Below, one piece after another: positions 39-18,602 of a stretch of 20,965 bases of DNA. Source of the stretch: Candidatus Woesearchaeota archaeon (GTDB taxonomy: Archaea; Nanobdellota; Nanobdellia; Woesearchaeales; JACPBV01); NCBI GenBank assembly GCA_019323195.1, contig JAHWHQ010000005.1:1-20965 (forward strand). Reading direction: 5' to 3'. The notes under the pieces are model-generated. The model had not been told where the DNA came from. It saw only the letters and a program-made list of their open reading frames with translations, and did not search any database. Each line of letters opens with the position of its first letter. Within the stretch, counting starts at the first letter, position 1. The translations under genes were made by a program, and so were the position numbers.

Positions 39-440
39 TTATCTTTTAAACTCCTTGATTTTTCCATTTTTTATCCACTCCTTAATCTCATTGTCGTTAT
101 AATAATTCTCCCTGATACCTTGCATGACTCTTGCGTAATAGGGGTTATCTTTTATCCTGAATTTTCCCTTATTTGAGATTACAAAGTTTTTTGTCGCAAT
201 AAAAGATGTTCTTCTGTTGCCACTTGCAAAAGCGTGTTCCTGTACAATTCCCTTAAGCAGACAAACTGCTTTATCATAAATGTCCCCTTCAGCTTCCTTA
301 CATTCCTTAATAACTCTATCGATTCTAGCTTCACTTAAAACTTCTACTTTATCGGCTTTTTTGACCCGTATAATATTAAGTGCTAATATATTATACTCAA
401 TTATTTGCTCAGTTGTAGGGTACATAATCTGATTTGCCAT
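39..440 (-). CDS. Doc (death-on-curing) type Fic-fold toxin, 133 aa
   Basis: Track ORF. It carries a degenerate Fic motif of the Doc kind, EHAFASGNRRTSF (compare HxFx[DN][AG]NKR), in a ~130-aa protein typical of Doc. The TAA stop is at 39-41. Confidence 0.75.
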   Translation of the reverse strand: MANQIMYPTTEQIIEYNILALNIIRVKKADKVEVLSEARIDRVIKECKEAEGDIYDKAVCLLKGIVQEHAFASGNRRTSFIATKNFVISNKGKFRIKDNPYYARVMQGIRENYYNDNEIKEWIKNGKIKEFKR

Positions 441-1805: not shown

Positions 1806-3965
1806 ATGAGCATAATAAATAACAAAAGACAAGGATTATTGTTCATAGCCATAACAGCATTAGGCATCTCTTCAATAATAACCCAGCTCACTGCAATAAG
1901 GGAGTTCCTGAGCGTTTTTTACGGCAATGAGTTAATATTTGGCATCATACTTGCAAACTGGCTCTTATTGACAGGCATAGGGGCTTATCTAGGAAAATAT
2001 ATCAAAGAAGGAAAGATCTCCTGGCTGATAATATCAGAAATAATCATCGCATTCCTTCCTTTCTTCCATATAGCTATAATAAGGAACCTGAGGAATCTCA
2101 TATTCCTGAAAGGAGAACTGATAGGCATCACAAAGATATTCCTCTCATCCTTTCTGATATTGATGCCCTACTGCCTCATCTCCGGCTTCCTGCTCACTTT
2201 AGCCTGCTGCATCTTTTCCATAAAAAAGGATTCTGCGTCAATAGGCAAGGTCTACTTCATGGACAACATCGGAGACATACTTGGAGGTGTTCTGTTCAGC
2301 TTTATCCTTGTCTATTTCCTGAACGCATTCCAGATGGCTTTTTTCATCATGTTCATCAACCTTTTCGCTGCCTTATTGCTTGCCTTTTTCATAATAAAAA
2401 AAAGAAGATTCATCGCCTTCTTTATCCTTCTGCTTCTCATCCTCTCCTCAATAGGATTCTTCCTTACAGACCTGGACAGGATAACAAGGCAGCAGCAGTA
2501 CAAGGGCCAGGAACTGCTGTTCCAGAAAGACAGCCCTTACGGCAGCCTTGCAGTTACAAGAACAATGGGCCAGCTCAACTTCTATGAGAACGGCCTGATC
2601 CTGTTCAGCACAGAAAATACAGTATCCAACGAGGAGACAGTCCATTATGCCATGGCGCAGCTCAATAATCCAAGAACAGTGCTCCTTATCTCCGGCGGCG
2701 TGTCAGGAACGATTGATGAGCTCTTAAAATATAACCTAAGCCGGATAGACTATGTTGAGCTTGATCCCTTAATCATTGAATTAGGAAAAAGATACACAAC
2801 CAACCTGGACAATAAGAAGATAAGGATAATAAACAAGGACGGAAGGCTCTTCATAAGGCAGGCAGAAGCAAGGTATGATGCAGTCATAATCGACCTTCCT
2901 GACCCAGACACAGCCCAGCTGAACAGGTTCTATACAACAGAGTTCTTCAAAGAGGCCAGGAAGGTCCTGGACAAGGAAGGTGTTATCTCATTAAGCCTAA
3001 GCTCCTCTGACAACTACCTCAACCCAGAGATAAGAAGGTTAAATTCAGCCCTGTACAATTCATTGAAAGAGCATTTCAGGAACACAATAATAATCCCTGG
3101 ACAAAGGAATTTCTTCATATCTTCTGATAAAGGGTTAAGCTATGATATCGCTGAATTGATAAAAGAAAAAGGGATCCAGACAGAGTATGTCAACGGGTTC
3201 TACCTGAGAGGGGAATTGACCGATGAAAGGATAAGTTATGTAAGGGATTCCATGATAAAAGACACAAAGCAGAACACAGACTTCAACCCTGTAACATACT
3301 ACTACCAGCTCCTTCTCTGGATGAGGCATTTCAGGTTTAACAGCTTATTATTCTTCATAATCCTTATAGCATTAGTTGCATTATACCTGAGCAAAGCAAA
3401 GCCTGTACAGTTTGCAGTATTCACCACTGGCTTTACAGGAGCATCCTTAGAGGTAATAATCCTTATCGGCTTCCAGATATTATACGGCTATGCCTATCAC
3501 CAGATAGCTATAATCATAACCGCGTTCATGGCAGGCCTTGCTATAGGCTCTTATTACATGAATAAAAAGCTGGAAGGGATGTCAAGAAAAGAGCTTGTAA
3601 AGCTGGAGTTTTCCATTGCGTTTTATTCAGCCCTTCTTCCTATAATCCTGATTCTTCTTGGCAGGTTAAAGAATAGCCTCCTTGTCTCAGCCTCATCGCA
3701 GTTATTAATACCCCTCTTCACCTTAATAATCGCTGTTCTTGTAGGTATGGAATTCCCTCTGGCTTCCAAGCTCTTCTTTAAAGGGAAGATAGGTGAAACA
3801 GCAGGAAAGCTGTATAATGCAGACCTGATAGGCGCATGCATCGGCGCTTTGCTTGTAAGCTCCCTGTTGATACCGATATTAGGCATTCTTAAGGTTTGCT
3901 TTTTAACAGCTTCTTTAAACCTATTAAGCGGATCCATTCTTATGTGCAGTAGAGGAAGTAAATAA
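1806..3965 (+). CDS. fused polytopic membrane domain / spermidine synthase (SpeE-like aminopropyltransferase) family protein, 719 aa
   Basis: About 7 hydrophobic segments occupy aa 1-220 and about 6 more occupy aa 510-719. The central domain has SpeE-type motifs: LLISGGVSGT (Gly-rich nucleotide loop), YVELDP and VIIDLPDPDT (DxxDP). Confidence 0.85.
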   Translation: MSIINNKRQGLLFIAITALGISSIITQLTAIREFLSVFYGNELIFGIILANWLLLTGIGAYLGKYIKEGKISWLIISEIIIAFLPFFHIAIIRNLRNLIFLKGELIGITKIFLSSFLILMPYCLISGFLLTLACCIFSIKKDSASIGKVYFMDNIGDILGGVLFSFILVYFLNAFQMAFFIMFINLFAALLLAFFIIKKRRFIAFFILLLLILSSIGFFLTDLDRITRQQQYKGQELLFQKDSPYGSLAVTRTMGQLNFYENGLILFSTENTVSNEETVHYAMAQLNNPRTVLLISGGVSGTIDELLKYNLSRIDYVELDPLIIELGKRYTTNLDNKKIRIINKDGRLFIRQAEARYDAVIIDLPDPDTAQLNRFYTTEFFKEARKVLDKEGVISLSLSSSDNYLNPEIRRLNSALYNSLKEHFRNTIIIPGQRNFFISSDKGLSYDIAELIKEKGIQTEYVNGFYLRGELTDERISYVRDSMIKDTKQNTDFNPVTYYYQLLLWMRHFRFNSLLFFIILIALVALYLSKAKPVQFAVFTTGFTGASLEVIILIGFQILYGYAYHQIAIIITAFMAGLAIGSYYMNKKLEGMSRKELVKLEFSIAFYSALLPIILILLGRLKNSLLVSASSQLLIPLFTLIIAVLVGMEFPLASKLFFKGKIGETAGKLYNADLIGACIGALLVSSLLIPILGILKVCFLTASLNLLSGSILMCSRGSK

Positions 3966-5017: not shown

Positions 5018-5174
5018 ATTTAGTAGCGGCTATTTATTATGGTATATAAATTATGAAATAATTTTATACTCCATAAATGCGTTAGCATTTCTCGTAACTT
5101 ACTTTAGTCCGCTACTAAAAAAACAAAAGATTTATATTCTAAAATGTCCAAAATACCTACTAGGGGTGATCCAA

Positions 5175-5333
5175 ATGATTGGCATGACTGAAATACTAGT
5201 AGTATTGGTGATAATCTTGATTCTTTTCGGGCCTAAGAAGCTGCCTGAACTGGCAAGGTCTATCGGAGAGAGCGTAAAGGCCTACAGGGAAGGCATGAGT
5301 TCAAAAGGGAAAAAGAAGAAATTGAAGGGATGA
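5175..5333 (+). CDS. tatA: twin-arginine translocase subunit TatA/E, 52 aa (below the ORF-track size cut-off)
   Basis: Hand translation gives MIGMTEILVVLVIILILFGPKKLPELARSIGESVKAYREGMSSKGKKKKLKG. It has a single TM, the hallmark F-G-P hinge, KLPEL and an amphipathic helix. A strong SD (ggggtgatcc) lies 5 nt upstream, and the TGA stop is at 5331-5333. Confidence 0.85.
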   Translation: MIGMTEILVVLVIILILFGPKKLPELARSIGESVKAYREGMSSKGKKKKLKG

Positions 5334-5405
5334 AAATTTCTATTATCGCAAAGTTTATATATAAGTTATACATAGGTCTAACTAGAGTATAACTAGGTGG
5401 TGATA

Positions 5406-5615
5406 ATGGCTATAGAGGTAGTATTAAAAAAATGGGGAAACTCGATTGGAGGAGTATTTCCAAAAGATTTTGTCAGAAAAAACAAACTTAGCGTAGATGA
5501 CACCATTTTTGTAGAGGTAGTCCGGAAGACAAACCTGACTAAGCTATTTGGAAGTTTACCGAGAAAAAAATCTGGGCAGCAGTTTAAGGATATGGTAAGG
5601 AAAGGATGGAAATAA
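5406..5615 (+). CDS. vapB: AbrB/MazE/SpoVT-fold antitoxin (VapB-like), 69 aa from the ATG at 5406
   Basis: VVLKKWGNSIGGVFPKDFVRKNKLSVDDTIFVEV is a typical SpoVT-AbrB swapped-hairpin motif. The SD aggtggtga sits directly upstream of the ATG at 5406; the track start 5397 is a GTG inside that SD. It overlaps the PIN gene by 10 nt. Confidence 0.8.
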   Translation: MAIEVVLKKWGNSIGGVFPKDFVRKNKLSVDDTIFVEVVRKTNLTKLFGSLPRKKSGQQFKDMVRKGWK

Positions 5616-5980
5616 AAAGCTATTTTTTCGACACTTATGCTTTTTTTGAAATAATCGAAGGGAATGAAAATTATAGGAAATACTCTAAAGACATCATCAT
5701 GATAACAACTAAACTAAACCTTATGGAACTGCATTACGGACTAATGGTGGAATATGGAAAAGAAATTGCTGATATTTATTATGATGTACTTGTCAGATTT
5801 GTTGCAGAAATTGATGACTGGACAATAAAAGAGGCAAATGTTTTTAGGTCTGAATATAATAAAAGGGACCTATCATATGTTGACTGCATTGGATATGTTA
5901 TAGCAAGGAGTAAAAATATAAGGTTCCTAACAGGGGATAAACAATTTGAAGATTTAGAGAATGTTGAGTTTGTTAAATAA
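5606..5980 (+). CDS. vapC: PIN-domain toxin (VapC-like), 124 aa
   Basis: The acidic quartet is at the expected spacing: FFDTYA (Asp9), LMELHYG (Glu), SYVDCIGY (Asp), TGDKQF (Asp). Size and the overlap with the upstream AbrB-type gene fit VapBC. Confidence 0.8.
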   Translation: MEIKSYFFDTYAFFEIIEGNENYRKYSKDIIMITTKLNLMELHYGLMVEYGKEIADIYYDVLVRFVAEIDDWTIKEANVFRSEYNKRDLSYVDCIGYVIARSKNIRFLTGDKQFEDLENVEFVK

Positions 5981-6003
5981 AAGAGGTGGTAGGGAGACAG
6001 ATA

Positions 6004-6690
6004 ATGGAACTCCCGCTGCACGAGCATCTGGATGAATTAAGGAAAAGGTTCATTATAGTCATCGTTTTCCTGTTCATTTTCTTTATTGTCGGTTTCTTAT
6101 TTTCAGGCTTTTTTATAAAAAAGATAATCCATGACCTGGTCTTTATAGAGAATGTCAGGATAATCGGCCTAACCCCTATCGAGTATTTTTTGACGCAGGT
6201 AAAGGTAGGGTTCCTTATATCCTTTATAATAACCCTCCCGATAATAATCTACCAGCTATTGGTCTTTATAAGCCCTGGCATGAACAGAAGAGAAAAGAAA
6301 AGTATTAAGCTGATACTGCCTTCATTTATCCTGCTGTTTTTGATAGGGGTTGTCTTCACCTATTTTATCTTCCTTCCTGTTGCAGTCTATTTCCTTGGAA
6401 ACCTGTCAAAAGGGATAATAGAGAACATATGGTCTATTGACGCCTTTATCAATTTCGTATTGCTGAGCTGCCTGTCTTTCGGCCTGATATTCCAGCTGCC
6501 CCTGCTCCTTATAACCCTGAACAGGATAGGCATAATAGATGCCAAAAGCTTAAGGACGTACAGGGCGCATACCTATGTCATTATATTTATATTATCCGCC
6601 GTAATAACCCCGCCTGATGCCATCACACAGCTGATAATCGCGCTTCCTCTGGTGATGTTGTATGAGGCAAGCTTATTGATCATAAGGTAA
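6004..6690 (+). CDS. tatC: twin-arginine translocase subunit TatC, 228 aa from the ATG at 6004 (track start 5986 is GTG)
   Basis: The N-terminal HLDELRKRFI motif is followed by six hydrophobic segments with the TatC pattern (ISPGM..REKK, LLFLIGVVFTYFIFLP, SAVITPPD). It starts 6-24 nt after the PIN stop. Confidence 0.85.
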   Translation: MELPLHEHLDELRKRFIIVIVFLFIFFIVGFLFSGFFIKKIIHDLVFIENVRIIGLTPIEYFLTQVKVGFLISFIITLPIIIYQLLVFISPGMNRREKKSIKLILPSFILLFLIGVVFTYFIFLPVAVYFLGNLSKGIIENIWSIDAFINFVLLSCLSFGLIFQLPLLLITLNRIGIIDAKSLRTYRAHTYVIIFILSAVITPPDAITQLIIALPLVMLYEASLLIIR

Positions 6691-6789: not shown

Positions 6790-7641
6790 ATGAGAATAAT
6801 AAAAAGAAAAAAAGGAAGGAAAGATTATTTCTATTTACAGCACTCTTTTAGAAAAGAGGGCAGGGTTATAACCAAAGAGATATATCTGGGCAAAAAAATT
6901 CCAGAAAACATTAGTAGAATTAAAGGAGAGATGATAATAGATGCCAAAAAAACCCTGTATGAAAAATTAAAAAAAATAAGGGATGATTTTCAAAAGGAAT
7001 GGAAAAGATACCCTGAAACAATCAGGAATAAAGAGAAAGAGGAGATAGCTATTGCTTTTACATATAATACAAACGCAATAGAAGGCTCAACTATTACATT
7101 AGAAGAGACCAGAGACATTATACATTATAAGACCTCCCCTGAAAAGCCTCTTAGGGATGTCAAGGAAACAGAAGCGCATTCAGGAGTATTCCTTGCAATG
7201 TTGGATAAAAAAGATAAGGTATCCAAAAAACTATTACTTGAATGGCATAGGGGCATTTTTGGAGAAACAAAGAAAGACATTGCAGGAAGATTCAGGGACT
7301 ATCTGGTGAGAGTTGGCAATTACAGGGCACCTGACTGGCAGGATGTTAAAAAACTTATGAATGAGCTAATTAATTTCATCAGTAAATCTAAGGATAATCC
7401 TGTTGAATTAGCAGCCAGGGCACATTATAAATTTGAGAAGATCCATCCTTTTGGTGATGGAAATGGAAGGATTGGAAGGCTTTTAACTAATTACATATTA
7501 TGGCATAACAAATACCCTATGATAGTAATAGAGTATAAGAAAAGAAGGTCTTATTATAAAGCCCTGGAAAGAGATGAGGAAGGGTTTGTTAACTATTTCC
7601 TAAGAAGATACCTTTCTGTCCATAAGAGAAGAGTAAAGTAA
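6790..7641 (+). CDS. Fic family protein (AMPylase type) with intramolecular inhibitory motif, 283 aa
   Basis: The Fic motif HPFGDGNGRIGR is canonical. The upstream TNAIEG matches the inhibitory-helix motif [ST]xxxE[GN], placing it in class II Fic. Confidence 0.9.
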   Translation: MRIIKRKKGRKDYFYLQHSFRKEGRVITKEIYLGKKIPENISRIKGEMIIDAKKTLYEKLKKIRDDFQKEWKRYPETIRNKEKEEIAIAFTYNTNAIEGSTITLEETRDIIHYKTSPEKPLRDVKETEAHSGVFLAMLDKKDKVSKKLLLEWHRGIFGETKKDIAGRFRDYLVRVGNYRAPDWQDVKKLMNELINFISKSKDNPVELAARAHYKFEKIHPFGDGNGRIGRLLTNYILWHNKYPMIVIEYKKRRSYYKALERDEEGFVNYFLRRYLSVHKRRVK

Positions 7642-7657: not shown

Positions 7658-9151
7658 TCACTCCTCAAACACAAAAGCCTGGTAGGTATAGACCTCTGTA
7701 GAGGTATCCTCCCAGCAGTCTGGCAACATCCCTCCCTTCCTGCACAAACTCAACAAAAACTCATCTTTCGCACCAAAATTAGCCCAAACCTGCGGAAGAT
7801 AGGTTGACTGCTTATAGCCCTGCTTAAGGACAACGCCGTCAACCATGGGCCTTAGCTTATCCAGCAGATCCTCACCTGAAGAGAACTCCAGCCTCTGAGG
7901 CACTGTCAGGACAGATATCTCAATGTTGATATCCTCCATCTCATCATAAACAACAGGCTCAAATCTCCTGTCATTTACAGCTGCGCTTACTGCATTGTCC
8001 ATGACGCACTTATAGAGCTCCTCCTGCGGCAGGATATGGCCTATGCAGCCTCTCAGGTTATGGTCCTTATTGAATGTCGTAAAACATCCTTTTACCTCCT
8101 TCAAAGCAGGTGTCAATTTTTCCTCATCTACCTCAGGCATTTTCCCTGTCTTAAGGTACTGCTCAGCTGTCTCCCTTGCAAGCCCTAAAAGAAATCCCTG
8201 ATCCTCTGCTGTTAATGGCTCATCATTATCCGAAGACCTGGCTGTTGATCCCTTATCCCCTTCACTGATAAATGCTATCGCAGAATATCCTACAACACTA
8301 TCCATATTCCCGCTAACATCACCAGAATTCGCATAATAAAGTATGTACGGCTTCCATCCATTTCTCTGCGCTATCTTAAGCAGGGTTGATACTGCAGAAG
8401 GCGCATCTATCTCAGCCTTAAATATCCCTTCAGAATCAAGGTTTAGAATCCTGTCAAGTGCATAATAATCAAGCTGTTTTGCCTCATCATAGCTATGGTA
8501 ATGCGACATGTCAACGCTTACGACAAGCAATGTACTATCATCGATATGCTTCCCAAGGATGTCTGCAAAAGCATCTGGCTCAACACTGCCGACAAGTACA
8601 GGAACAAGCTCAAAGTCACCTAAAGTCTGCTGAAGAAAAGGAAGCTCTATCTCAAGCGAATGCTCTTCTGCATGAGCCTCTGGCACATTATTTATCATCT
8701 CCTCTTTCAGAAGCCTTTTTGCTGTTTTAGACAGCTTAACCTCTCCAAGAGGTGTCTTGTAATGAGTAACATCCAGGATAGAGGCCCCTGATAAGGGATA
8801 ATGGTGTGAAGGGCCTAACAGAATAACCTTATCATGATCAGAATTAAGCTGCCTGAACGCAACAGCTGCCACCTGTCCTGAAAAGCTGTATCCTGCATGG
8901 GGGACAATAACAGCCCTGACAGTGCCATTAAAGTCAGCTTTCCTTACATTACCTAAGTAGGTGTCTACTGCTGCCTGTAGCGTTTCCATATCGCCAGGAT
9001 ACCATGATCCTGCCACTGCTGTATCCCTTACTTTCTTTTTCTGCAACGTAAAGTTATTTGTTGACTTGTATGTAAGGATTATAAGAAACAGTATTAAAAA
9101 AGCTGCAAATAGGTAAAGATGCTTTTTCTTTATTTTTATCCTGCTTTTCAT
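7658..9151 (-). CDS. fused AmmeMemoRadiSam system protein B (Memo-like, aa ~43-295) + protein A (AMMECR1, aa ~312-497) with N-terminal signal anchor, 497 aa
   Basis: Memo signature: AGSWYP, VPHAGYSFSG, SVDMSHYH, GYSAIAF. AMMECR1 signature: GCFTTFNKDHNLRGCIG, YLPQVW. The N-terminus is MKSRIKIKKKH followed by the 17-residue hydrophobic LYLFAAFLILFLIILTY. Confidence 0.9.
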   Translation of the reverse strand: MKSRIKIKKKHLYLFAAFLILFLIILTYKSTNNFTLQKKKVRDTAVAGSWYPGDMETLQAAVDTYLGNVRKADFNGTVRAVIVPHAGYSFSGQVAAVAFRQLNSDHDKVILLGPSHHYPLSGASILDVTHYKTPLGEVKLSKTAKRLLKEEMINNVPEAHAEEHSLEIELPFLQQTLGDFELVPVLVGSVEPDAFADILGKHIDDSTLLVVSVDMSHYHSYDEAKQLDYYALDRILNLDSEGIFKAEIDAPSAVSTLLKIAQRNGWKPYILYYANSGDVSGNMDSVVGYSAIAFISEGDKGSTARSSDNDEPLTAEDQGFLLGLARETAEQYLKTGKMPEVDEEKLTPALKEVKGCFTTFNKDHNLRGCIGHILPQEELYKCVMDNAVSAAVNDRRFEPVVYDEMEDINIEISVLTVPQRLEFSSGEDLLDKLRPMVDGVVLKQGYKQSTYLPQVWANFGAKDEFLLSLCRKGGMLPDCWEDTSTEVYTYQAFVFEE

Positions 9152-9291: not shown

Positions 9292-9591
9292 ATGGCAGCA
9301 ACTGTTACAACAAGGCTACCTAATGAACTAAATAGGGAGTTAAATAAGATATCAAAAATAGAGAATCTGGACAAATCAGCAGTAATGAGAAGATTGCTTG
9401 CTGATTCCATAAAGAGGTGGAATGAATACTATGCATTAGCCATGTATCAAAAAGGTATTTTCTCTACAGAGCAGGCAGCTGATTTTATAGGTGTTTCACT
9501 ATGGAGGTTTTCCGACATGTTAAATAAAAACAAGACACCAATAAGCTATGATGTAGAGGAGTTTGAAAAAGACCTGAAAAACATAAAATGA
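9292..9591 (+). CDS. antitoxin-like protein: N-terminal ribbon-helix-helix plus UPF0175-like C-terminal domain, 99 aa
   Basis: TTRLPNELNRELNKISKIENLDKSAVMRRLL is CopG/RHH-like. QKGIFSTEQAADFIGVSLWRFSDMLNKNKTPISYDVEEFEKDL resembles UPF0175. An ATGA overlap links it to the next gene. Confidence 0.7.
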   Translation: MAATVTTRLPNELNRELNKISKIENLDKSAVMRRLLADSIKRWNEYYALAMYQKGIFSTEQAADFIGVSLWRFSDMLNKNKTPISYDVEEFEKDLKNIK

Positions 9592-10076
9592 CTGTAAGCA
9601 ATTCTACTGTATTGATAAACCTGATTAAGATAGGCAAGGTAGATCTAATAAAAAATATTTATAAGAATATAACAATAACAGGCGTTATCAGAAAAGAGGT
9701 AACTAGAGAAGATGAATTATATAAAAATGAGATAAGGGTTTTTAATGAGTTAGCAGGGAGTTTTATCATAATAAAAAATCCGGCAAACTTGAAAGATTTT
9801 GGGCTTCATAAGGGAGAAAATTCATGTTTATCCCTATGCAAAGAGATAGATGATATAACCTTTCTATCAGATGATAAAAATGCAAGAAAAGCAGCAGACT
9901 TCCTGGGAATAAGAGTTATAGGAACTTTGGGAATATTAGTCTCAAATCTGAAGAAGAAAAAGCTCAATAAAAAAGAATTCTTTACCATATTAAGAAAACT
10001 GATTGACAAAGGTTTTTATATTTCCACTGAATTGTTTGCAGCTGTTGAGGAGTATGTGAATAAGATTATTCTTTAG
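9588..10076 (+). CDS. DUF3368 / PIN-like predicted nucleic-acid-binding toxin partner, 162 aa
   Basis: STVLINLIKIGKVDLIKNIY, HKGENSCLSLC, LSDDKNARKAA and GIRVIGTLGILV match the DUF3368 (COG2405) pattern, which is usually paired with UPF0175. Confidence 0.7.
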   Translation: MTVSNSTVLINLIKIGKVDLIKNIYKNITITGVIRKEVTREDELYKNEIRVFNELAGSFIIIKNPANLKDFGLHKGENSCLSLCKEIDDITFLSDDKNARKAADFLGIRVIGTLGILVSNLKKKKLNKKEFFTILRKLIDKGFYISTELFAAVEEYVNKIIL

Positions 10077-10088
10077 TTGTCTAACCAC

Positions 10089-11303
10089 TTACCACACGCC
10101 CGCAATACCTTCCCCGCAGAACTTACAGCTTCCACCCATTAAATTATTTTCTGTTATCACATAGCCGTTTCTTCCTACAACTGTCTTCCCGCACTTTGGG
10201 CAGTATGTGCTTACTGCCTTTGTCCCTGGAAGGTTTCCTATATAGACGAACTTAATCCCTTCCTCCATAGCAGTCTCCCTTGCCTGGTTCAGCACATCTG
10301 CCGGAGTCGGAGGAAGATGCGTAAGCTTATACTGCGGATGGAACCTTGAAAAATGAAGAGGGTAATCATCAAATCCGTTCTTATGCAGCCACACTGCCAT
10401 ATCCCTTATCATGTCAGGGTCATCTGTCCACGTAGGGACTATAAGGTTGGTGATCTCAAACCATATGCCCTCTTCCTTTGCTGTCTTAAGCGCATTTAAG
10501 ATGGGCTTAAGGGAGCCTGAATTAAGCTCATGGTATATCTCATCGCTAAATCCCTTAAGGTCTATATTGGCTGCGTCTATAACCCTGCACAACTCCCTTA
10601 AAGGCTTTTCATTTATATAGCCGTTAGTCACCCACACGTTTTTCAGTCCCTCCTTCTTTGCCAGCTTTGATGTATCATACATGTACTCATAAAAAGATGT
10701 AGGCTCTGAATAGGTATAGGCTACCGAAGGGCATTTATTCTCCAGGGCAGCCTTGACAACTGCCTCAGGCATCAGGTCATAGTTTTTTGTCTCTTCAGGC
10801 TGGAACTGCGATATGCTCCAGTTCTGGCAGTTCAGGCATCGTAATGTGCATCCTGCTGTCGCAATAGAAAAGATGGCAGTAGAGGGAAGGAAATGGAACA
10901 GCGGCTTTTTCTCTATAGGGTCGATATGCACAGCGCAGGGATTGCCGTAAGCCAGCGTGTATAATCTTCCCTGAATATTCACCTTATTCCTGCATATGCT
11001 TCTATCTCCTGGCTCAAGGCTGCATCTGTTAGGGCATACATTGCACTGCACATTATCCCCGGCTTTAGTGTAATGGTAAGCCTCCCTGCTCCATCTCCAC
11101 AATTCATCAGGGGCAGCTCCCTTAAATGTCCTGCTGAGGGAAGAGGGTTTTCTTCCAAATAGATAGCCATAACCATAAGCAGCTGTAGCAAGCCCTCCCA
11201 GGCCTATAAGGCTGTATTTGAGAAATTCCCGTCTTGAGATTTTTCTGTCAAAGAACCTTTCTGCAGGATTCTTCATCTTTTTTTCAGTTTTCTTCTCACC
11301 CAT
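10089..11303 (-). CDS. AmmeMemoRadiSam system radical SAM enzyme with N-terminal twin-arginine (Tat) signal, 404 aa
   Basis: The radical SAM cluster motif is CTLRCLNCQNW (Cx3Cx2C). An N-terminal Cys cluster (CNVCPNRC...C) and a C-terminal zinc ribbon (CPKCG...CKFCG) are typical of the PflA-like AmmeMemoRadiSam family. Residues 23-29 are S-R-R-E-F-L-K (nt 11217-11237), followed by the hydrophobic YSLIGLGGLATAAYG. Confidence 0.9.
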   Translation of the reverse strand: MGEKKTEKKMKNPAERFFDRKISRREFLKYSLIGLGGLATAAYGYGYLFGRKPSSLSRTFKGAAPDELWRWSREAYHYTKAGDNVQCNVCPNRCSLEPGDRSICRNKVNIQGRLYTLAYGNPCAVHIDPIEKKPLFHFLPSTAIFSIATAGCTLRCLNCQNWSISQFQPEETKNYDLMPEAVVKAALENKCPSVAYTYSEPTSFYEYMYDTSKLAKKEGLKNVWVTNGYINEKPLRELCRVIDAANIDLKGFSDEIYHELNSGSLKPILNALKTAKEEGIWFEITNLIVPTWTDDPDMIRDMAVWLHKNGFDDYPLHFSRFHPQYKLTHLPPTPADVLNQARETAMEEGIKFVYIGNLPGTKAVSTYCPKCGKTVVGRNGYVITENNLMGGSCKFCGEGIAGVW

Positions 11304-12842: not shown

Positions 12843-15800
12843 TTATCTGCCCTTTTTCTTCATAACCAGATAGATAACCAACAGGCAGATTAAGACCACT
12901 GCCAGGACAGCAAATAAGGCAGTAAATACCAGGTTATATTGCTCTACCTGTGAAGGTGCAAGCGCTTCAGGTATCTCTCCTCTTTCAGCCTCTAAGCCAA
13001 TCTGCTCATATTCAGGAGCTCCCTGCTTTACCCAGACGCTGCCGTCCCATTTCCAGTTAACCCCGTCATTGTTCCTTATCTCTCCTACAGACCTTCCCGC
13101 CTCTGCAGGAGGCTGTGGGGAATAAGCGCAGCTCTGCCTTGTAGTTGGCTTGTATTTAACAGTTCCGCAGTTCTTGTAATCCCTGCATATCCTGGTCATC
13201 TGTCCATCCTTGCTGCATTCGCTCCATGATGTGCATACCCAGTTTTCCTTGCACTCTGTAGATACCGGCACCCCTTCAGTTGTATCAGAATAGCCGACAC
13301 AGTCAGGGTCAGCAGGATAATCTATCAGGCCGTCGCCGTCATTGTCGATGCCGTCCTTGCACTGGGCAACAGTATTGCCGCCGCCTCCGCCGCCTCCGCC
13401 GCCGCTTGTAGTCCCGCTGCTTGGAGCCGGCGCTCCGTCGCCCCAGCTGCTGAACTCGCAGTTAGGGACTGTCCATTCACTTACGTCAGTACTGTTATGG
13501 TAGCCTATCTTGCTTGACTCATTAGTCCTGTTCTTGCATGTCAAGGAATCACTTTCATCCCCGCAGTGCCATAGTTCAGTGTTATTGCCAGGGATGTAGA
13601 CCCTGCACTCCTCAGGCCTCAACTTATCCCTTATGTCGTCAAACTTATCCTTCTCTGCTTTGACAAAATCAGCTGTTCCTCCGCCAGCCTTGTTTACAGT
13701 TGACTTCTCGAAATCGCCTTCATCAACTGTCCTGGAGTTCCCTGCCAGCGTCCTTGGAGTTACATTGACCAGCTTTATCCCTGCATTCGTCGTATTATCG
13801 ACAAACTCTATGTCCAGGGTCTCATTATACCACACCAGCAGTCCGGCAGCCTTGCCGCAGTCCAGGCAGCCCTGTGTATAATTCTGGCCTTCATGGTTCA
13901 TGTTTACATTCCATCCTTCAGGGATATCGTCAAACCTCACTACCATCCTGCAGTCAGGGCAGTCCTTCCTGCTGGATGTCTTGGCAGTTGTAAAATTCAG
14001 CGTCCTGCTCTTTGCTGTATTGTTGGACTTATCCGTCATCTGTACCTTGTAAAAATAGGTCGTTCCGTTGGCAAACTTATAGTTAACCCCGCCTGTAATG
14101 TTCCTTACATCAATAGAATGCCTCTTGTCAACAGTATTGTCAGTCACGTTAATAGCAGTTGTCAGATTGCATCTGCTGTTGTTTCCGCAGAATATCACTG
14201 TTATATTGGTTGACTCATCAGTATCTATGGCGATATGCCCTCCGTCAGGGTATTCATCGATCTCTTTGTGCACCAGCTTAGGTGCTGTAGTATCCTCAAC
14301 CCCTTCCCATGTACTTAAGCAGAACCAAAAATCCTTGCAGTCACTATCCTCGCAGTTGGTCAGGCCGTCACCATCCTCATCCCCTGATCCTTGGAAGCAG
14401 TCTTCTATCATGAAGAACCCGTATTTCTGGAAGCCTCCGCAGTCAGGGTCGTCCTTTGCCTTTGACCCGTCTCCATCCATATCGCACTCAGGGCACATGC
14501 AGTCCTCAAACCTAAAGTCAAACTGGTTAGGGGAATAGTAGCTAGGGCCTGCATAATCCAGAGGGCTGTTATAGTCTCTTGAGCCGTTCGCTGCAGCCAC
14601 CATGACCCTCATATCCTCAGTAGGGTCGTATAATGCGGTGAAAGTATTGAGGTCGCTCTTCTGTATGCTTATCATACCCCCTCCTACCATGTCACATACA
14701 GCCTTTTTCCAGCTTGACAGCATGATCTCTGCAGCTGTCCAGTTGCCGTTCTGGCACCTGTATGCCACCCTGGTTTCCTTCAGCTCGCCGCTGGACATGA
14801 CGCCCACATAGTTCAGCCTGAACTCAAAACCAGGATAAGAGCTGTCATTTATCGCATTGCAGCCGCCGGTTGCATCCCCGTCTGTATCAAGGTACCAGTA
14901 AAACCTTGTTGTCTTGGTTCCTGTTGTAGGCACTAGTAATGGATTATCCCATGATGTTCTTGTACTTTCCCCGTTGCATATGGCAGCATCCTTAATAGAG
15001 TGTACTGAGATGCCAAGCCCCCAGTTGTCAGGTTCGTCCTTTGTCCCGAACGACCTTATGTCAGAGTAGTGGGCAATACTGGAATTCCGGCCATCAAAGC
15101 CCAAAGATGTCGGCGGCTGGGACATCATATCCCCCTGAAACATCATACCCATCATCTTGCCTTCACACCAGCCGCTTCTCATCATGCATCCGGGCTCATT
15201 AGTGCAGGCAGTTGAATCACCGCTCAATGACGAGTTAAAGCATTTGGGTTTGCAGTAGCCCGCATTATCCCATGAGCAGAAGCTGTTTCCGGCTGTGCAT
15301 AGTGCTGCGCTGCTCTGCCTTGATGAGTTCATATTGCACTCCCATGCCTTGTAGTCACACCAGCTGTTTCCTGTCGGGTCTGTCCACCAGGAGCAGTTGC
15401 CTTCTGCCTGGCAGGAAGTCTGGTTCTTATCCTTGCAGTAATTGGAAGTATCCACGTCACAGAACTGCCCCTGCTCTTCCATCCACATGCAGCTGCTTTG
15501 GTTATTGCATTGTGTCTGGTCATTTTCAAATTTCCAGCAGTCATCCATCATGACTACGCCCATTCCACCTCCACCTACTCCTCCAGGCATGCATATGCCC
15601 GCACTCCATTGGCAGGAGTCCTTACCCAAGCATTGGCTTTGGGTCAGGGATGAATTGAAGCAGTGCGGCCTGCAGGCATAGCTCTGCATCCACTCATCAT
15701 AGTTCCATACGCAATAATCCAGCTGAGCGCATGCTGTCTCATTCCTGCTAAAACAGGTGTCTACCTTTAAGGAGCAGAAGCTTTCTATGCGCCATTCGCA

Positions 15801-18296
15801 GTCAGCATTAGCTTCACATCCGCTCCTGTCAAAATCATACATCATGCAGTTGGTAGACAGGGTATAATTCTTCCTGTTGCAAAACCCGCTGCTTGTCCAT
15901 GAGCAACTCGCGTTATTAGGGGCAGTAGTGCAGGATACGTTATTCAGGCCGTTGCATATGCTAAACTGGCTCTGGTTCATATCGCACATCCCTCCTGTAG
16001 GGGGAATATCCCACTGGCATCCTTCTGTGTTAGTGCAGCCGTTCTGATCATCGGCATACATCCAGCAGTTTCCTCCTATCATCTCGCACCATTCCCCGTC
16101 GCTGTTGTTAACCCACGCGCACATAGGGTCCGGATTGCATGTATTATTATCTTCATACATGCCGCAATTGCTCATAAAACTCCCTCCGCAGAAATCCCCG
16201 CCGAAGCATTTGGAATCCCCGCAGTCGATATAGCCGTCGCCGTCATTATCCTCCCCGTCATAACACAGCTCTGTAGAGCCTCCGCTGGTTCCCTCCTCGA
16301 CGCACATCCCGTTGCTCCATGTGCAGTTCTTTCCAGAGCCTAGCCCGCCCTTGTCCCTGCATGAGGTGTCTGTAAAGCATTCCCCGCAGTCTTCAGTGCA
16401 GCCCTCCTTGTTCTGGGAATCGCACCATCCCTTGCTTGAATCATCAGGGTCAGCAAACCATGTGCAGTTGGCAGCGCTGTTCTTGCATGCAGTCATGGCC
16501 TCATTTACAGTCTTTCCCATATAAGTACAGACAGAGCATTTAGTATTGCAGTCGCCGCCCCCTGATTTCTTATATTCCTGCTTCTCCACGCATAGGCCTA
16601 TCCCGTTAGGCGCATAGGTGTCTGCCTTGAACGTGCAGTAGCCAAGCGGAGAATCCTCGCAGGATGATTTGGCGTTAGCTGATGTGACATTCTTTCCGCT
16701 GGCATCCCTGAACTCGCATGCCCAGCATACCTCTTTGCATGACTTGGCTCCGGCCCCAACCTTGGGCTCGCACCATCCAAAAGGCACTGTCTGGTTTCCG
16801 TTGCAGTAATACTCGACAACCCATGATCCTCCGGTATCCTCGCATTGTTTCTTGTTGGTTATCTCCTTCACATCATTAATATTCTCCTTTTCCATAAGCC
16901 TGTCATAGCACTTGCTGCTGGAATTATCCCATGCGCATGGCATGTACCATGGGTCTCCTGCTATCTTCCGGCATTTTGAAGGGCTGTCAAGGACATTATA
17001 ATCAACGCAGTAATGCGCTCCATCCCCGGGATCCTCAATATTATCCCAGCACTTTTTTGACATAGGCGCCTTATTGCAGCTGCTTCCGTTCCATGAGCAG
17101 CACCCTCCTAAAAAAGGAACCTCCTTGCAGAACGTATTATTGACTATATCAGTGCACCTTATCCCATTGACAATATTGGAGTTATTGCTGGCATTCTCCT
17201 GGCAGGCAGCAGCGCTGGCATTATAAAAGCATCCCCTTACCTGGTTGCATCGTGTTGAGTTGTAATCCATGATCCAGCATCCTGTCTTCATAAAATCCTG
17301 GTCCATGTCAAAATCATTGAAGCCGATCTGTATCGGATCCCTGCATGTACTGTCAGATTTATTATAGATGCAATAATAGGTGTCCATGCATCCTTTCTCA
17401 TTATTATTATACATAGTGCAGCCTGCGCTCATATCCTCCTCGCAGTAGGGATCATGATAGGTGCAGTTCAGGCCATAAAGGGTTCCGTTACCCACACAAG
17501 CATCCTGGCCTTCCCCATACCAGTTCCAGCATCCTACCTCCTCGCACCATCCGTAATTCTCCATGTAATTCCATTCACAGTTATCCTTCAGCTGGCATGT
17601 AGTCTTGTCCATTATGTTCCAGCATCCTTCCTGGTTGCACCATGGGTCATTATAGGTGCAGCTGAGGTTATAGGCATTATTCTGGCATGCAGATGAGTTT
17701 GTATAATCCCATATCCAGCAGTTGATCTCCTCGCAGTATTGGTATTGTGAATTCCAATTGCAGTTTAAGGTAGTTGCTCCTGTGCATTCCCCGGGAGTAT
17801 TGAAGTTCCAGCAGCCCTTTTCATAGCAGAAATTCCCGGAGCTGTCCCACTGGCAGGCATTCCCCTTATAGTCTGTCGCTGAGGTGCAGCCTGAAGAGGT
17901 GGTCTGGTCCCAGCAGCCGGGCTTATAGCAGTATGAATAGTCTGAGTTCCAGCTGCATCCCAAATCAGTGGAATGGGCCTGGCATGATGACTGGTTATAA
18001 TAAAGCCAGCATCCTTTCTCGCTGCACCACCCGTCATTAGTCCCTCCTCCTGTCTTCCATGTGCAGCTCATGTTAGAGTCAGCAGCAGCATTGCAGTCAG
18101 TCTCATCCCAAAAATTCCAGCAGCCCAGCTGGTTGCACCAGCCTCCACCATCCGCCCATGTATCTGCCATCCATGTGCATATAGAGGACTGCGCCTCGCA
18201 GCCTGTCTGGTTTCCGTCATACTGCCAGCATTCAAAACCCGCACCGAAAACAAAAGAAACGCCCAAGACAAGAATCAACCCTACCAACCCAATCAA
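12843..18296 (-). CDS. giant secreted, C-terminally membrane-anchored Cys/Trp-rich repeat surface protein, 1817 aa
   Basis: The N-terminus IGLVGLILVLGVSFVFGA is hydrophobic and signal-like. Residues ~21-1045 are tandem ~31-37-aa 4-Cys modules. Then come a Met-rich linker, a low-Cys beta-rich region, Cys-flanked DxDxDG acidic loops, an FN3-like segment (aa ~1338-1438), Gly9, a WSxC/TSP1-like Cys knot, a TM segment (aa 1788-1811) and a KKKGR tail. My hand count gives about 146 Cys and about 50 N-x-[ST] sequons. The start codon is TTG (see findings). Confidence 0.9.
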   Translation of the reverse strand: MIGLVGLILVLGVSFVFGAGFECWQYDGNQTGCEAQSSICTWMADTWADGGGWCNQLGCWNFWDETDCNAAADSNMSCTWKTGGGTNDGWCSEKGCWLYYNQSSCQAHSTDLGCSWNSDYSYCYKPGCWDQTTSSGCTSATDYKGNACQWDSSGNFCYEKGCWNFNTPGECTGATTLNCNWNSQYQYCEEINCWIWDYTNSSACQNNAYNLSCTYNDPWCNQEGCWNIMDKTTCQLKDNCEWNYMENYGWCEEVGCWNWYGEGQDACVGNGTLYGLNCTYHDPYCEEDMSAGCTMYNNNEKGCMDTYYCIYNKSDSTCRDPIQIGFNDFDMDQDFMKTGCWIMDYNSTRCNQVRGCFYNASAAACQENASNNSNIVNGIRCTDIVNNTFCKEVPFLGGCCSWNGSSCNKAPMSKKCWDNIEDPGDGAHYCVDYNVLDSPSKCRKIAGDPWYMPCAWDNSSSKCYDRLMEKENINDVKEITNKKQCEDTGGSWVVEYYCNGNQTVPFGWCEPKVGAGAKSCKEVCWACEFRDASGKNVTSANAKSSCEDSPLGYCTFKADTYAPNGIGLCVEKQEYKKSGGGDCNTKCSVCTYMGKTVNEAMTACKNSAANCTWFADPDDSSKGWCDSQNKEGCTEDCGECFTDTSCRDKGGLGSGKNCTWSNGMCVEEGTSGGSTELCYDGEDNDGDGYIDCGDSKCFGGDFCGGSFMSNCGMYEDNNTCNPDPMCAWVNNSDGEWCEMIGGNCWMYADDQNGCTNTEGCQWDIPPTGGMCDMNQSQFSICNGLNNVSCTTAPNNASCSWTSSGFCNRKNYTLSTNCMMYDFDRSGCEANADCEWRIESFCSLKVDTCFSRNETACAQLDYCVWNYDEWMQSYACRPHCFNSSLTQSQCLGKDSCQWSAGICMPGGVGGGGMGVVMMDDCWKFENDQTQCNNQSSCMWMEEQGQFCDVDTSNYCKDKNQTSCQAEGNCSWWTDPTGNSWCDYKAWECNMNSSRQSSAALCTAGNSFCSWDNAGYCKPKCFNSSLSGDSTACTNEPGCMMRSGWCEGKMMGMMFQGDMMSQPPTSLGFDGRNSSIAHYSDIRSFGTKDEPDNWGLGISVHSIKDAAICNGESTRTSWDNPLLVPTTGTKTTRFYWYLDTDGDATGGCNAINDSSYPGFEFRLNYVGVMSSGELKETRVAYRCQNGNWTAAEIMLSSWKKAVCDMVGGGMISIQKSDLNTFTALYDPTEDMRVMVAAANGSRDYNSPLDYAGPSYYSPNQFDFRFEDCMCPECDMDGDGSKAKDDPDCGGFQKYGFFMIEDCFQGSGDEDGDGLTNCEDSDCKDFWFCLSTWEGVEDTTAPKLVHKEIDEYPDGGHIAIDTDESTNITVIFCGNNSRCNLTTAINVTDNTVDKRHSIDVRNITGGVNYKFANGTTYFYKVQMTDKSNNTAKSRTLNFTTAKTSSRKDCPDCRMVVRFDDIPEGWNVNMNHEGQNYTQGCLDCGKAAGLLVWYNETLDIEFVDNTTNAGIKLVNVTPRTLAGNSRTVDEGDFEKSTVNKAGGGTADFVKAEKDKFDDIRDKLRPEECRVYIPGNNTELWHCGDESDSLTCKNRTNESSKIGYHNSTDVSEWTVPNCEFSSWGDGAPAPSSGTTSGGGGGGGGGNTVAQCKDGIDNDGDGLIDYPADPDCVGYSDTTEGVPVSTECKENWVCTSWSECSKDGQMTRICRDYKNCGTVKYKPTTRQSCAYSPQPPAEAGRSVGEIRNNDGVNWKWDGSVWVKQGAPEYEQIGLEAERGEIPEALAPSQVEQYNLVFTALFAVLAVVLICLLVIYLVMKKKGR
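13377..13403 (-). repeat. (GGC/GGA)9 trinucleotide tract encoding Gly9
   Basis: The plus strand reads gccgccgcctccgccgcctccgccgcc. It encodes G1632-G1640 of the giant protein. Confidence 0.9.
17427..18236 (-). repeat. eight consecutive clean copies of the coding tandem repeat C-W-x(7-9)-C-x(5-10)-C-x-[WY]-x(4-10)-C-x4
   Basis: C-W pairs fall at aa 23, 59, 96, 128, 162, 193, 225 and 256, a spacing of 31-37 aa. On the plus strand this appears as a recurring CCAGCA(N)CC, the reverse of GGN-TGC-TGG, every ~93-111 nt. Degenerate copies continue to about aa 1045 (nt ~15162). Confidence 0.85.
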
Positions 18297-18602
18297 AGCT
18301 ATAGTTCTAATTTTCGTTTAAACCACCCCTTTTGAATTATTGAAATATTTTTGGTTTTAATAGGTCTTTTAATTAATATTATTTAAATGTTTCTTTTTTT
18401 TGGAGGCAAAAATTAACTATTCCGGGATAAAAAATCTATTTTTGTTCATCTGCTTAAACTTTCTGCTTTATGAAAAGAATATCTTTTTATTGCTTAATTG
18501 CTGTTATTTTCTGTTAAAAAAATTGTAGCATTAAAACAAAAACCTTTTCCATTATTGTATTTGCTCCTCTTGGCATATTCTCTCTGGGTCCAATTGTATC
18601 CT

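Follow-up and report, generated by a model that had tools for sequence, protein, structure and literature searches.

We analysed a 20,965-nucleotide stretch of DNA from a Candidatus Woesearchaeota archaeon (contig JAHWHQ010000005.1; hereafter the window) and focused on the gene at positions 12843–18296 of its minus strand, which encodes an 1817-residue, Cys-rich, membrane-anchored protein with the features of a surface glycoprotein. The outer part of this protein is a tandem array of small modules with four invariant Cys and an additional Trp directly behind the first of them, hereafter the C-W module. In our reading, this module is a minimal four-Cys variant of the PSI and Paramecium surface antigen (Paramecium_SA) type with an extra Trp, and not a new fold class. 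The PSI-type fold class of the module is known; what we rate as new is an archaeal, four-Cys, Trp-augmented array of PSI-like modules in a conserved envelope protein of DPANN archaea. In a full-text search of the literature, neither this family nor archaeal modules of the PSI type were found to be described. The protein itself is probably a disulfide-stabilised, N-glycosylated, type I membrane-anchored envelope protein of the surface-layer (S-layer) type built of such modules.

The translated open reading frame is identical (100%) to a database entry (P0001), the NCBI hypothetical protein KY366_00175 of Candidatus Woesearchaeota archaeon. The protein contains 146 Cys (8.0%), of which 115 lie within residues (aa) 1–1050. 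All its features given below lie on the minus strand. It starts with a hydrophobic leader, a predicted signal peptide (aa 1–20, ...VSFVFGAG/FECW; 18237–18296), and ends with a 24-residue putative transmembrane anchor (aa 1789–1812; 12861–12932) followed by the basic tail KKKGR. All full-length homologues begin in the same signal-like manner and most of them end likewise, with a hydrophobic stretch and a basic tail. N-glycosylation sequons are 2.4-fold enriched, with 52 observed against 22.1 ± 4.2 in 2000 shuffles, none of which reached 52. An earlier reading of this DNA by a model that saw only the letters and their open reading frames (the sequence-only reading) had proposed a surface protein of regular four-Cys C-W modules, with about 115 Cys in the first 1050 residues and frequent sequons near the C-W. 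The translation, the module searches, the leader and the anchor agree with this proposal, the count is exact, and the sequon excess is real.

The C-W module: copies, predicted fold and relatives

A hidden Markov model (HMM) of the module was seeded on eight regular copies and then iterated across the protein family. Its consensus, GCWNYDNQTSCENASGLNCTWDSSGGWCEEK, is 31 residues long with the Cys spacing C-x8-C-x7-C-x8-C. All four Cys are present in every one of the 1550 aligned module copies; as no copy loses a Cys, co-loss is uninformative about disulfide pairing. Positions 7–9 of the module read N-[QE]-[TS] across the family, with Asn in 45% of copies, and 7 of the 17 query modules with an aligned N-terminal part have a sequon in the stretch from Cys1 to Cys2. 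The residue preceding Cys1 is Gly in about two thirds of the family modules that have this position. The eight regular modules (aa 22–288; 17433–18233), of about 31–37 residues each, are detected with i-Evalues of 7e-7 to 6e-12. Their CW dipeptides are all present where they had been placed earlier, at aa 23, 59, 96, 128, 162, 193, 225, and 256, and Gly precedes Cys1 in six of the eight, in keeping with the remark that the linker usually ends in Gly.

The regular modules are followed by a degenerate Cys-rich region (aa 292–1047; 15156–17423), delimited by the module HMM and the Cys pattern, in which 14 weaker copies are found at i-E<0.01 and 18 at i-E<=1, the last one ending at aa 1047. The total thus comes to about 22–26 copies in the outer ~1030 residues. 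The previous estimate of about 20 degenerate copies up to about aa 1045 was accurate in extent and slightly generous in number. Extra CW dipeptides occur at aa 340, 416, 524, 744, and 920, and both strings that had been quoted as examples of degenerate copies are found, at aa 744 and aa 920. The region also holds three units containing C-x3-C-x2-C (aa ~520–680) and one acidic double-disulfide repeat, CYDGEDNDGDGYIDCGDSKC (aa ~678–697). The three units (16250–16740) open with CKEVCWAC..., CNTKCSVC..., and CTEDCGEC..., respectively, and continue with a C-x-W hairpin. By eye, they come closer than the four-Cys modules to the complete pattern of PSI (C-x5-C-x2-C...C-x-W); PSI was not matched by them in a Pfam search of pieces covering aa ~520–680.

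Four consecutive modules (aa 58–190) were modelled with AlphaFold2 from an alignment of 105 four-module family windows with the query as first sequence. The model has a mean predicted local distance difference test score (pLDDT) of 92.8 and a predicted template modelling score (pTM) of 0.69. In every modelled module, a 3-10 turn at C-W-x-Y is followed by a helix around Cys2 and a β-hairpin, whose strands carry Cys3-x-Trp and [WYF]-Cys4, respectively. The structure prediction of tandem modules that had been suggested as a check of the sequence-only reading gives a confident turn-helix-hairpin fold.

When the model was compared with the Protein Data Bank (PDB) by Foldseek, the top-ranked matches were plexin and semaphorin ectodomains (3al8_B, 7y4p_A, 5l5l_A, and 6fkn_A), with root mean square deviations of 1.7–2.7 Å over 31–36 columns and E-values of 1.4–5.6, none of which is significant. 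The match to 7y4p_A covers 31 columns at 1.7 Å with a Foldseek probability of 0.63, and that to 6fkn_A shows 29% identity. Among viral structures, Foldseek found no match to the modules.

The likeness to PSI and Paramecium_SA is visible in Pfam searches only when isolated modules or their consensus are used, and not with the whole protein or its Cys-rich pieces, for which Pfam returned no match at E<=10. On the C-W modules of this protein, the scores of all curated Pfam and NCBIfam models stay below the respective thresholds. Single modules and windows were screened against 24,736 Pfam models. An artificial fourfold repeat of the consensus scores 22.1 bits (E=1.9e-4) with PSI (PF01437), whose cut-off is 23.1, and the module matches positions 2–30 of the 52 profile positions. 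The best natural module of the query (aa 160–192) reaches 18.7 bits (E=0.0022) with PSI and a second one 13.8 bits, and the module at aa 95–126 matches Paramecium_SA with 14.6 bits (E=0.045; cut-off 21.2 bits) and PSI with E=0.075. Among single family modules (n=149), matches at E<0.1 were obtained 24 times with Paramecium_SA and 14 times with PSI (best 3.2e-3), and at most three times with any other family. Of the four-module windows, 24/105 match Paramecium_SA at E<=0.01, the best at 3.9e-7; the query's own window has no match to it at this threshold. The module had been called unassignable to any known Cys-rich repeat family, which holds insofar as no curated threshold is reached; it is nevertheless not an orphan, since the predicted structure, Pfam, and profile searches all point to the PSI and Paramecium_SA class.

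The four-module profile was also searched against 1.84 billion representative proteins. It matched 542 of them at E<=1e-3, including 186 with E<=1e-10, of which 49 have E<=1e-30. Apart from members and fragments of the DPANN family, the best matches include a group of eukaryotic proteins of 4–7.5 thousand residues with up to 64 matched stretches, among them proteins of the diplonemids Rhynchopus euleeides and Namystynia karyoxenos and of the kinetoplastid Bodo saltans (CUG90296.1), and the E-values of these euglenozoan proteins range from 1e-52 to 1e-141. VWA domains were found in two scanned eukaryotic matches that resemble the euglenozoan proteins. Paramecium proteins named "PSI domain-containing protein" in UniProt were matched as well (P0165, E 3.9e-21; P0228, E 9.1e-13), and in P0228 the Pfam model Paramecium_SA scores 23 bits (cut-off 21.2) at residues 1617–1676, within the stretch 1615–1742 recognised by the DPANN profile. 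The protist modules follow the period C-x2-[YFL]-x5-C-x5-C-x-W-x6-C-x3, without the Trp after Cys1. When all residues except Cys were shuffled and each Cys kept its place, the scores fell far below zero, in one case from 478 to about −330 bits, and the best four-module domain scores of 20–41 bits fell mostly below 10, with a maximum of 17. Cys spacing and composition thus do not suffice to explain the similarity. In the euglenozoan proteins, it is carried by multi-module profiles only, as the single-module HMM fails to detect a domain there at 1e-3.

Two further groups of proteins are matched by the module profile (P0187, P0192, P0211, P0214 and P0151, P0173, P0198, P0213, P0219). Members of one group have about 500–650 residues and N-termini reminiscent of the class III (pilin-type) signal peptides of archaea (MxxKKGASFG...), and those of the other have about 0.9–1.8 thousand residues and lipoprotein-like leaders. 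Judging from these leaders, the four-Cys module may occur in further prokaryotic surface contexts. Among PDB sequences, the four-module profile found no match and the single-module profile a sole, non-significant one (E=0.23), the C-terminal domain of the Trypanosoma brucei variant surface glycoprotein (VSG) MITat1.1 (5m4t_A). One family module also weakly matches the Pfam family Trypan_glycop_C (PF10659). Taken with the strong matches in the free-living Euglenozoa (Bodo and the diplonemids), this hints that VSG C-terminal domains could derive from the same class of four-Cys modules.

The DPANN protein family and its likely role

Homologues of the protein form 86 clusters at 90% identity, with E-values from 0 to 7e-33, and all those with a named source come from DPANN archaea (Woese-, Pace-, Nano-, and Aenigmarchaeota). 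They are 1.2–3 thousand residues long and contain 6–10% Cys, and nearly all full-length members possess both the leader and the C-terminal anchor. Most of them align to the query as one collinear high-scoring segment pair over aa ~20–1625 with 30–48% identity, so that repeat noise alone does not account for their likeness. In a scan of loci restricted to one genome per species, 49 loci were found in 49 archaeal metagenome-assembled genomes (MAGs), which agrees with one copy in each genome. Additional taxon labels among these loci are Altiarchaeales, Nanohalarchaeota, and some "Methanosarcinales" that are probably mislabelled. A large neighbouring gene in one of the loci (L001) is not a paralogue of the surface protein.

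The module array is followed by a conserved, membrane-proximal core (aa 1048–1625; 13422–15155), which is collinear in >80 homologues. It contains two acidic double-disulfide repeats near aa 1266–1326 and the family motif FYWYLDTDG. The AlphaFold2 model of aa 1046–1640, based on 26 family sequences (pLDDT 83.8, pTM 0.77), is nearly all β and comprises several predicted sandwich domains. Foldseek retrieved only generic multi-domain matches of the FN3, Ig, and macroglobulin types for this core. The modelled β-sandwich core fits a membrane-proximal stalk and points to no specific function.

The conserved part ends at a Gly-rich linker (aa 1626–1640; 13377–13421), beyond which the coverage by homologues collapses; a 9-bp repeat was detected in it by Tandem Repeats Finder (13378–13403). 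No Pfam match was obtained for the variable tail (aa 1640–1817). It carries an acidic double-disulfide repeat (aa 1642–1669, CKDGIDNDGDGLIDYPADPDC; 13290–13373), the best of three stretches that match the NCBIfam model NF033662, a D/N-rich C...DxDxDG...C repeat, with 46.9 bits against a cut-off of 41; these stretches are short motifs outside the C-W modules and do not classify them. A Cys/Trp motif recognised in the letters only (aa 1682–1723, CKENWVCTSWSECSKDGQMTRICRDYKNCG...; 13128–13253) lies further downstream and, by eye, presumably resembles the thrombospondin type-1 repeat (WSxC...G.Q.R.C). PGF-pre-PGF (TIGR04213), a domain of archaeal surface proteins, is not present in the query. It is found in the variable tail of the homologues P0002, P0003, and P0021 (73–75 bits), ahead of the anchor, where the query has the NF033662 repeat and the Cys/Trp motif.

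These elements can be combined into a model of the probable envelope protein. The outer ~1030 residues would form a head-to-tail chain of about 22–26 PSI-like modules. Each module would contain two disulfides, probably 1–3 and 2–4 by analogy with C1–C4 and C3–C6 of PSI, which together with the conserved Trp and Tyr residues would build its tiny hydrophobic core. The conserved Trp would play a structural part and not serve as an enzymatic cross-link site. With linkers of three to four residues ending in Gly, the chain could be a stiff, protease-resistant, glycan-bearing rod, held above the membrane by the ~580 inner residues of predicted β-sandwich, the Gly-rich linker, the variable tail, and the transmembrane helix. 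The protein probably acts as the main outer coat of the S-layer type or as a spacer layer, presenting glycans and binding surfaces. The leader, the transmembrane anchor, the sequon excess, the apparently single copy per genome, and the conservation lend indirect support to such a role.

Several observations weigh against it. The Foldseek matches of the modules to PSI-containing chains have E>1 and the aligned plexin residues are unreported, so that they are a lead and not a proof, and every Pfam match on the query itself lies below the gathering cut-off. No solved S-layer protein is among the Foldseek matches to the C-terminal core, and a high Cys content is, to our knowledge, atypical of characterised archaeal S-layer proteins. 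Many source organisms come from anoxic habitats, in which extracellular disulfides are less expected, and a DsbA-like gene stands beside only one homologue. This gene (L004, 10748–11488, minus strand), on a JGI metagenome contig, encodes a secreted DsbA/thioredoxin-like protein with the active site CPYS and lies directly downstream of the homologue; neither the window nor any of the remaining 53 loci has such a gene.

As a rather unlikely alternative, a DPANN cell living as an ectosymbiont could use the protein as an adhesin for attachment to its host, with the module rod as a long glycosylated stalk that exposes binding surfaces towards the host envelope and not as part of a general coat. DPANN archaea are described as mostly ectosymbionts in excerpts of the literature; PSI modules and β-sandwich stalks are generally known as typical of eukaryotic adhesion receptors, plexin being among the Foldseek matches; the euglenozoan proteins with the module also have VWA adhesion domains; and the tail beyond the conserved core differs between lineages. 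However, the 1600-residue ectodomain stays collinear at 30–48% identity between phyla whose hosts presumably differ, and it apparently occurs once per genome, a pattern that suits a structural envelope protein better than a host-specific adhesin; in addition, neither Pfam nor Foldseek recognises a ligand-binding domain. We consider it very unlikely that the four Cys of each module bind Zn or Fe in a Cys4 site, which would turn the protein into a metal-stabilised or metal-sequestering surface array. The invariance of the four Cys, the frequent anaerobic life of the source organisms, and the acidic double-disulfide, MopE-like repeats elsewhere in the protein, which hint at cation binding, would be in line with it, but the Cys spacing has no CxxC knuckles of the kind usual in Cys4 metal sites, PSI and Paramecium_SA as the closest families are disulfide domains, the AlphaFold2 fold is confident without metal, and the protein is predicted to be extracellular and glycosylated like known disulfide-rich coats. 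The speculation of the sequence-only reading, that the Trp and Cys residues are cross-linked by a neighbouring radical SAM enzyme, has so little left in its favour that we practically dismiss it. Proximity alone speaks for it, the radical SAM gene (10089–11303, minus strand) lying ~1.5 kb downstream on the same strand. The product of this gene scores 356 bits with TIGR04337 (cut-off 220) and matches Pfam Radical_SAM, which identifies it as the radical SAM enzyme of the AmmeMemoRadiSam system, and its cognate partners are found in the window as a fusion of the AmmeMemoRadiSam proteins B (Memo) and A (AMMECR1) (7658–9151, minus strand; TIGR04336 and TIGR04335; Pfam Memo and AMMECR1). The predicted system is complete in itself. 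In addition, an SdpI-like gene, a Fer4_5 gene, a T-rich terminator-like stretch, and a TATA-like element lie between the two genes, and tblastn with the radical SAM gene found a homologue in 0 of 54 related loci (~10 kb per side), in agreement with four gene-called homologue neighbourhoods, which contain no radical SAM, Memo, or AMMECR1 gene. The surface protein is, moreover, exported, whereas radical SAM maturases are generally known as cytoplasmic enzymes acting on small peptides. With partners of its own and with no counterpart in the related loci, a cross-linking role of the enzyme is unsupported; both it and its partners are mere neighbours of the surface-protein gene.

A last alternative bears on the classification of the module and not on the function of the protein: the module could be truly novel, and its likeness to PSI and Paramecium_SA a convergence of small two-disulfide mini-domains with an aromatic core. 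The sub-threshold scores of all single-module Pfam matches, the failure of the single-module HMM at 1e-3 in the euglenozoan proteins, the Foldseek E-values above 1, the eight Cys of PSI against four in the module, and the lack of any significant match in PDB sequence searches with both profiles all agree with convergence. On the other side, three independent lines lead to one and the same class: the top structural matches are PSI-containing proteins, PSI and Paramecium_SA are the only recurrent matches among all Pfam models screened, and protist proteins, some of them annotated as PSI, are matched down to E 1e-141 in a manner that depends on non-Cys residues. We therefore regard convergence as distinctly unlikely and keep the PSI/Paramecium_SA assignment. 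A bolder proposal would make the C-W modules of DPANN archaea and the four-Cys PSI-type modules of protists (ciliate antigens, euglenozoan VWA proteins, perhaps VSG C-terminal domains) homologous, and the DPANN family the main envelope (S-layer-equivalent) protein of Woese-, Pace-, and Aenigmarchaeota, a eukaryote-like, disulfide-knotted glycoprotein coat. Taken as a whole, this proposal is rather unlikely in our estimation. If it were true, the PSI-type module would predate eukaryotes in archaea or would have been transferred between DPANN archaea and protists.

Gene start and neighbourhood

NCBI annotates KY366_00175 with 1811 residues, starting six codons downstream of the listed TTG start. 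From either start, the signal peptide lacks a basic n-region. A candidate region for the true start lies directly upstream (18300–18331, minus strand); it contains a Shine-Dalgarno-like GGGGTGG, a TAA stop, and the in-frame codons ATT (18311–18309) and ATA (18302–18300), about 10–20 nucleotides behind GGGGTGG. Past the TAA stop, the frame directly upstream of the listed start reads T-K-I-R-T-I-A. The gene may thus start at a rare ATT or ATA codon, as this would add a basic n-region (K-I-R-T) and give a better signal peptide.

The codon usage of the gene is native. Its GC content at third codon positions (GC3) is 0.58, near that of the native GlnA gene (0.59) and of TatC. A foreign origin, considered because of the high GC content, was rejected, the excess residing in codon position 2 and reflecting amino-acid composition, with a native-like GC3. 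No tRNA or Rfam match was found in the window.

The neighbourhood of the surface-protein gene is not conserved. Besides the absence of the radical SAM gene, tblastn of the window neighbours against the 54 related loci showed Memo in two, GlnA in one, and Fic in one. The sequence-only reading had named common homologues without linkage to any specific neighbourhood as a finding that would speak against it. Homologues are indeed common (86 clusters, 49 species-level genomes, and 542 module-carrying representatives) and tied to no neighbourhood, and on this count the earlier proposal fails by its own standard.

Other genes of the window show traces of possible insertions. Between the B and A fusion and the radical SAM gene, a UPF0175 gene (9292–9591) and a DUF3368/PIN-like gene (9588–10076) are located on the opposite strand. 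The GC3 of this toxin-antitoxin-like cassette is ~0.3, against ~0.45–0.5 in the flanking genes, which suggests a mobile insertion splitting the AmmeMemoRadiSam system. A TatA-like open reading frame (5166–5333) and TatC (5986–6690) are parted by an AbrB/MazE-like gene (5397–5615) and a PIN-domain open reading frame (5606–5980); this pair looks like a second toxin-antitoxin-like insertion within an operon. The window also carries two genes of the Fic/DOC family, a short one of 133 residues with a partial domain (39–440, minus strand) and a full one (6790–7641, plus strand). The GC3 of the full gene is 0.32, and a 62%-identical copy of it is found near the homologue in a RIFCSPHIGHO2 Woesearchaeota MAG (L038). 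Finally, the gene at 1806–3965 (plus strand) encodes a 719-residue protein in which a central spermidine/spermine synthase domain (aa 275–396) is the sole assigned part, with long unassigned flanks on both sides.

Comparison with known systems

Although DPANN archaea represent a large share of archaeal diversity, characterised envelope proteins are practically lacking for the uncultured Woese-, Pace-, and Aenigmarchaeota. The family described here provides a concrete envelope candidate that is conserved, apparently single-copy, and easily recognised, and could be used in metaproteomics, in labelling with antibodies or for cryo-electron tomography, and in studies of host contact. A dedicated profile is needed for its annotation, as the protein is now labelled "hypothetical". 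PSI-type arrays are usually deemed a eukaryotic extracellular invention, and their presence in archaea in a minimal four-Cys form bears on the origin of the module; the link to protist surface proteins merits a phylogenetic test. The family also raises the question of how anaerobes make disulfide-rich coats.

As the C-W module is predicted to be, PSI (PF01437) is a small extracellular Cys-rich α/β domain, in which a helix precedes a β-hairpin carrying C-x-W. PSI has eight Cys in ~50 residues, whereas the module has four in ~31; the latter lacks the Cys after the Trp (C-x-W-C in PSI) and the C-terminal third of PSI, and possesses an extra invariant Trp right behind Cys1. In addition, the module occurs in 20–40 tandem copies in archaeal hosts, while PSI domains are single spacers. 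Paramecium_SA proteins (PF01508) share with the DPANN protein a very large size (2–3 thousand residues), a Cys content of ~8–12%, membrane anchoring, and tandem units with the period C...C...C-x-W...C, the 62-residue Pfam unit corresponding roughly to two modules. The ciliate antigens are variant antigens anchored by glycosylphosphatidylinositol and encoded by multigene families. The DPANN protein differs from them in its predicted transmembrane anchor, in its apparently single copy, and in being collinear between phyla. The euglenozoan VWA proteins have the same four-Cys period as the DPANN module, C-x2-[YF]-x5-C-x5-C-x-W-x6-C-x3. In these eukaryotic proteins of 4–7.5 thousand residues, however, CW is almost absent, the modules are interleaved with VWA domains, and the similarity per module is weak (~7–10 bits). 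With the archaeal S-layer and PGF-pre-PGF glycoproteins, the protein shares a signal peptide, a large, predicted N-glycosylated ectodomain with β-sandwiches, and a C-terminal membrane anchor. It differs from them in lacking PGF-pre-PGF, and we know of no characterised archaeal S-layer protein that features such an extreme Cys content or arrays of PSI-like modules.

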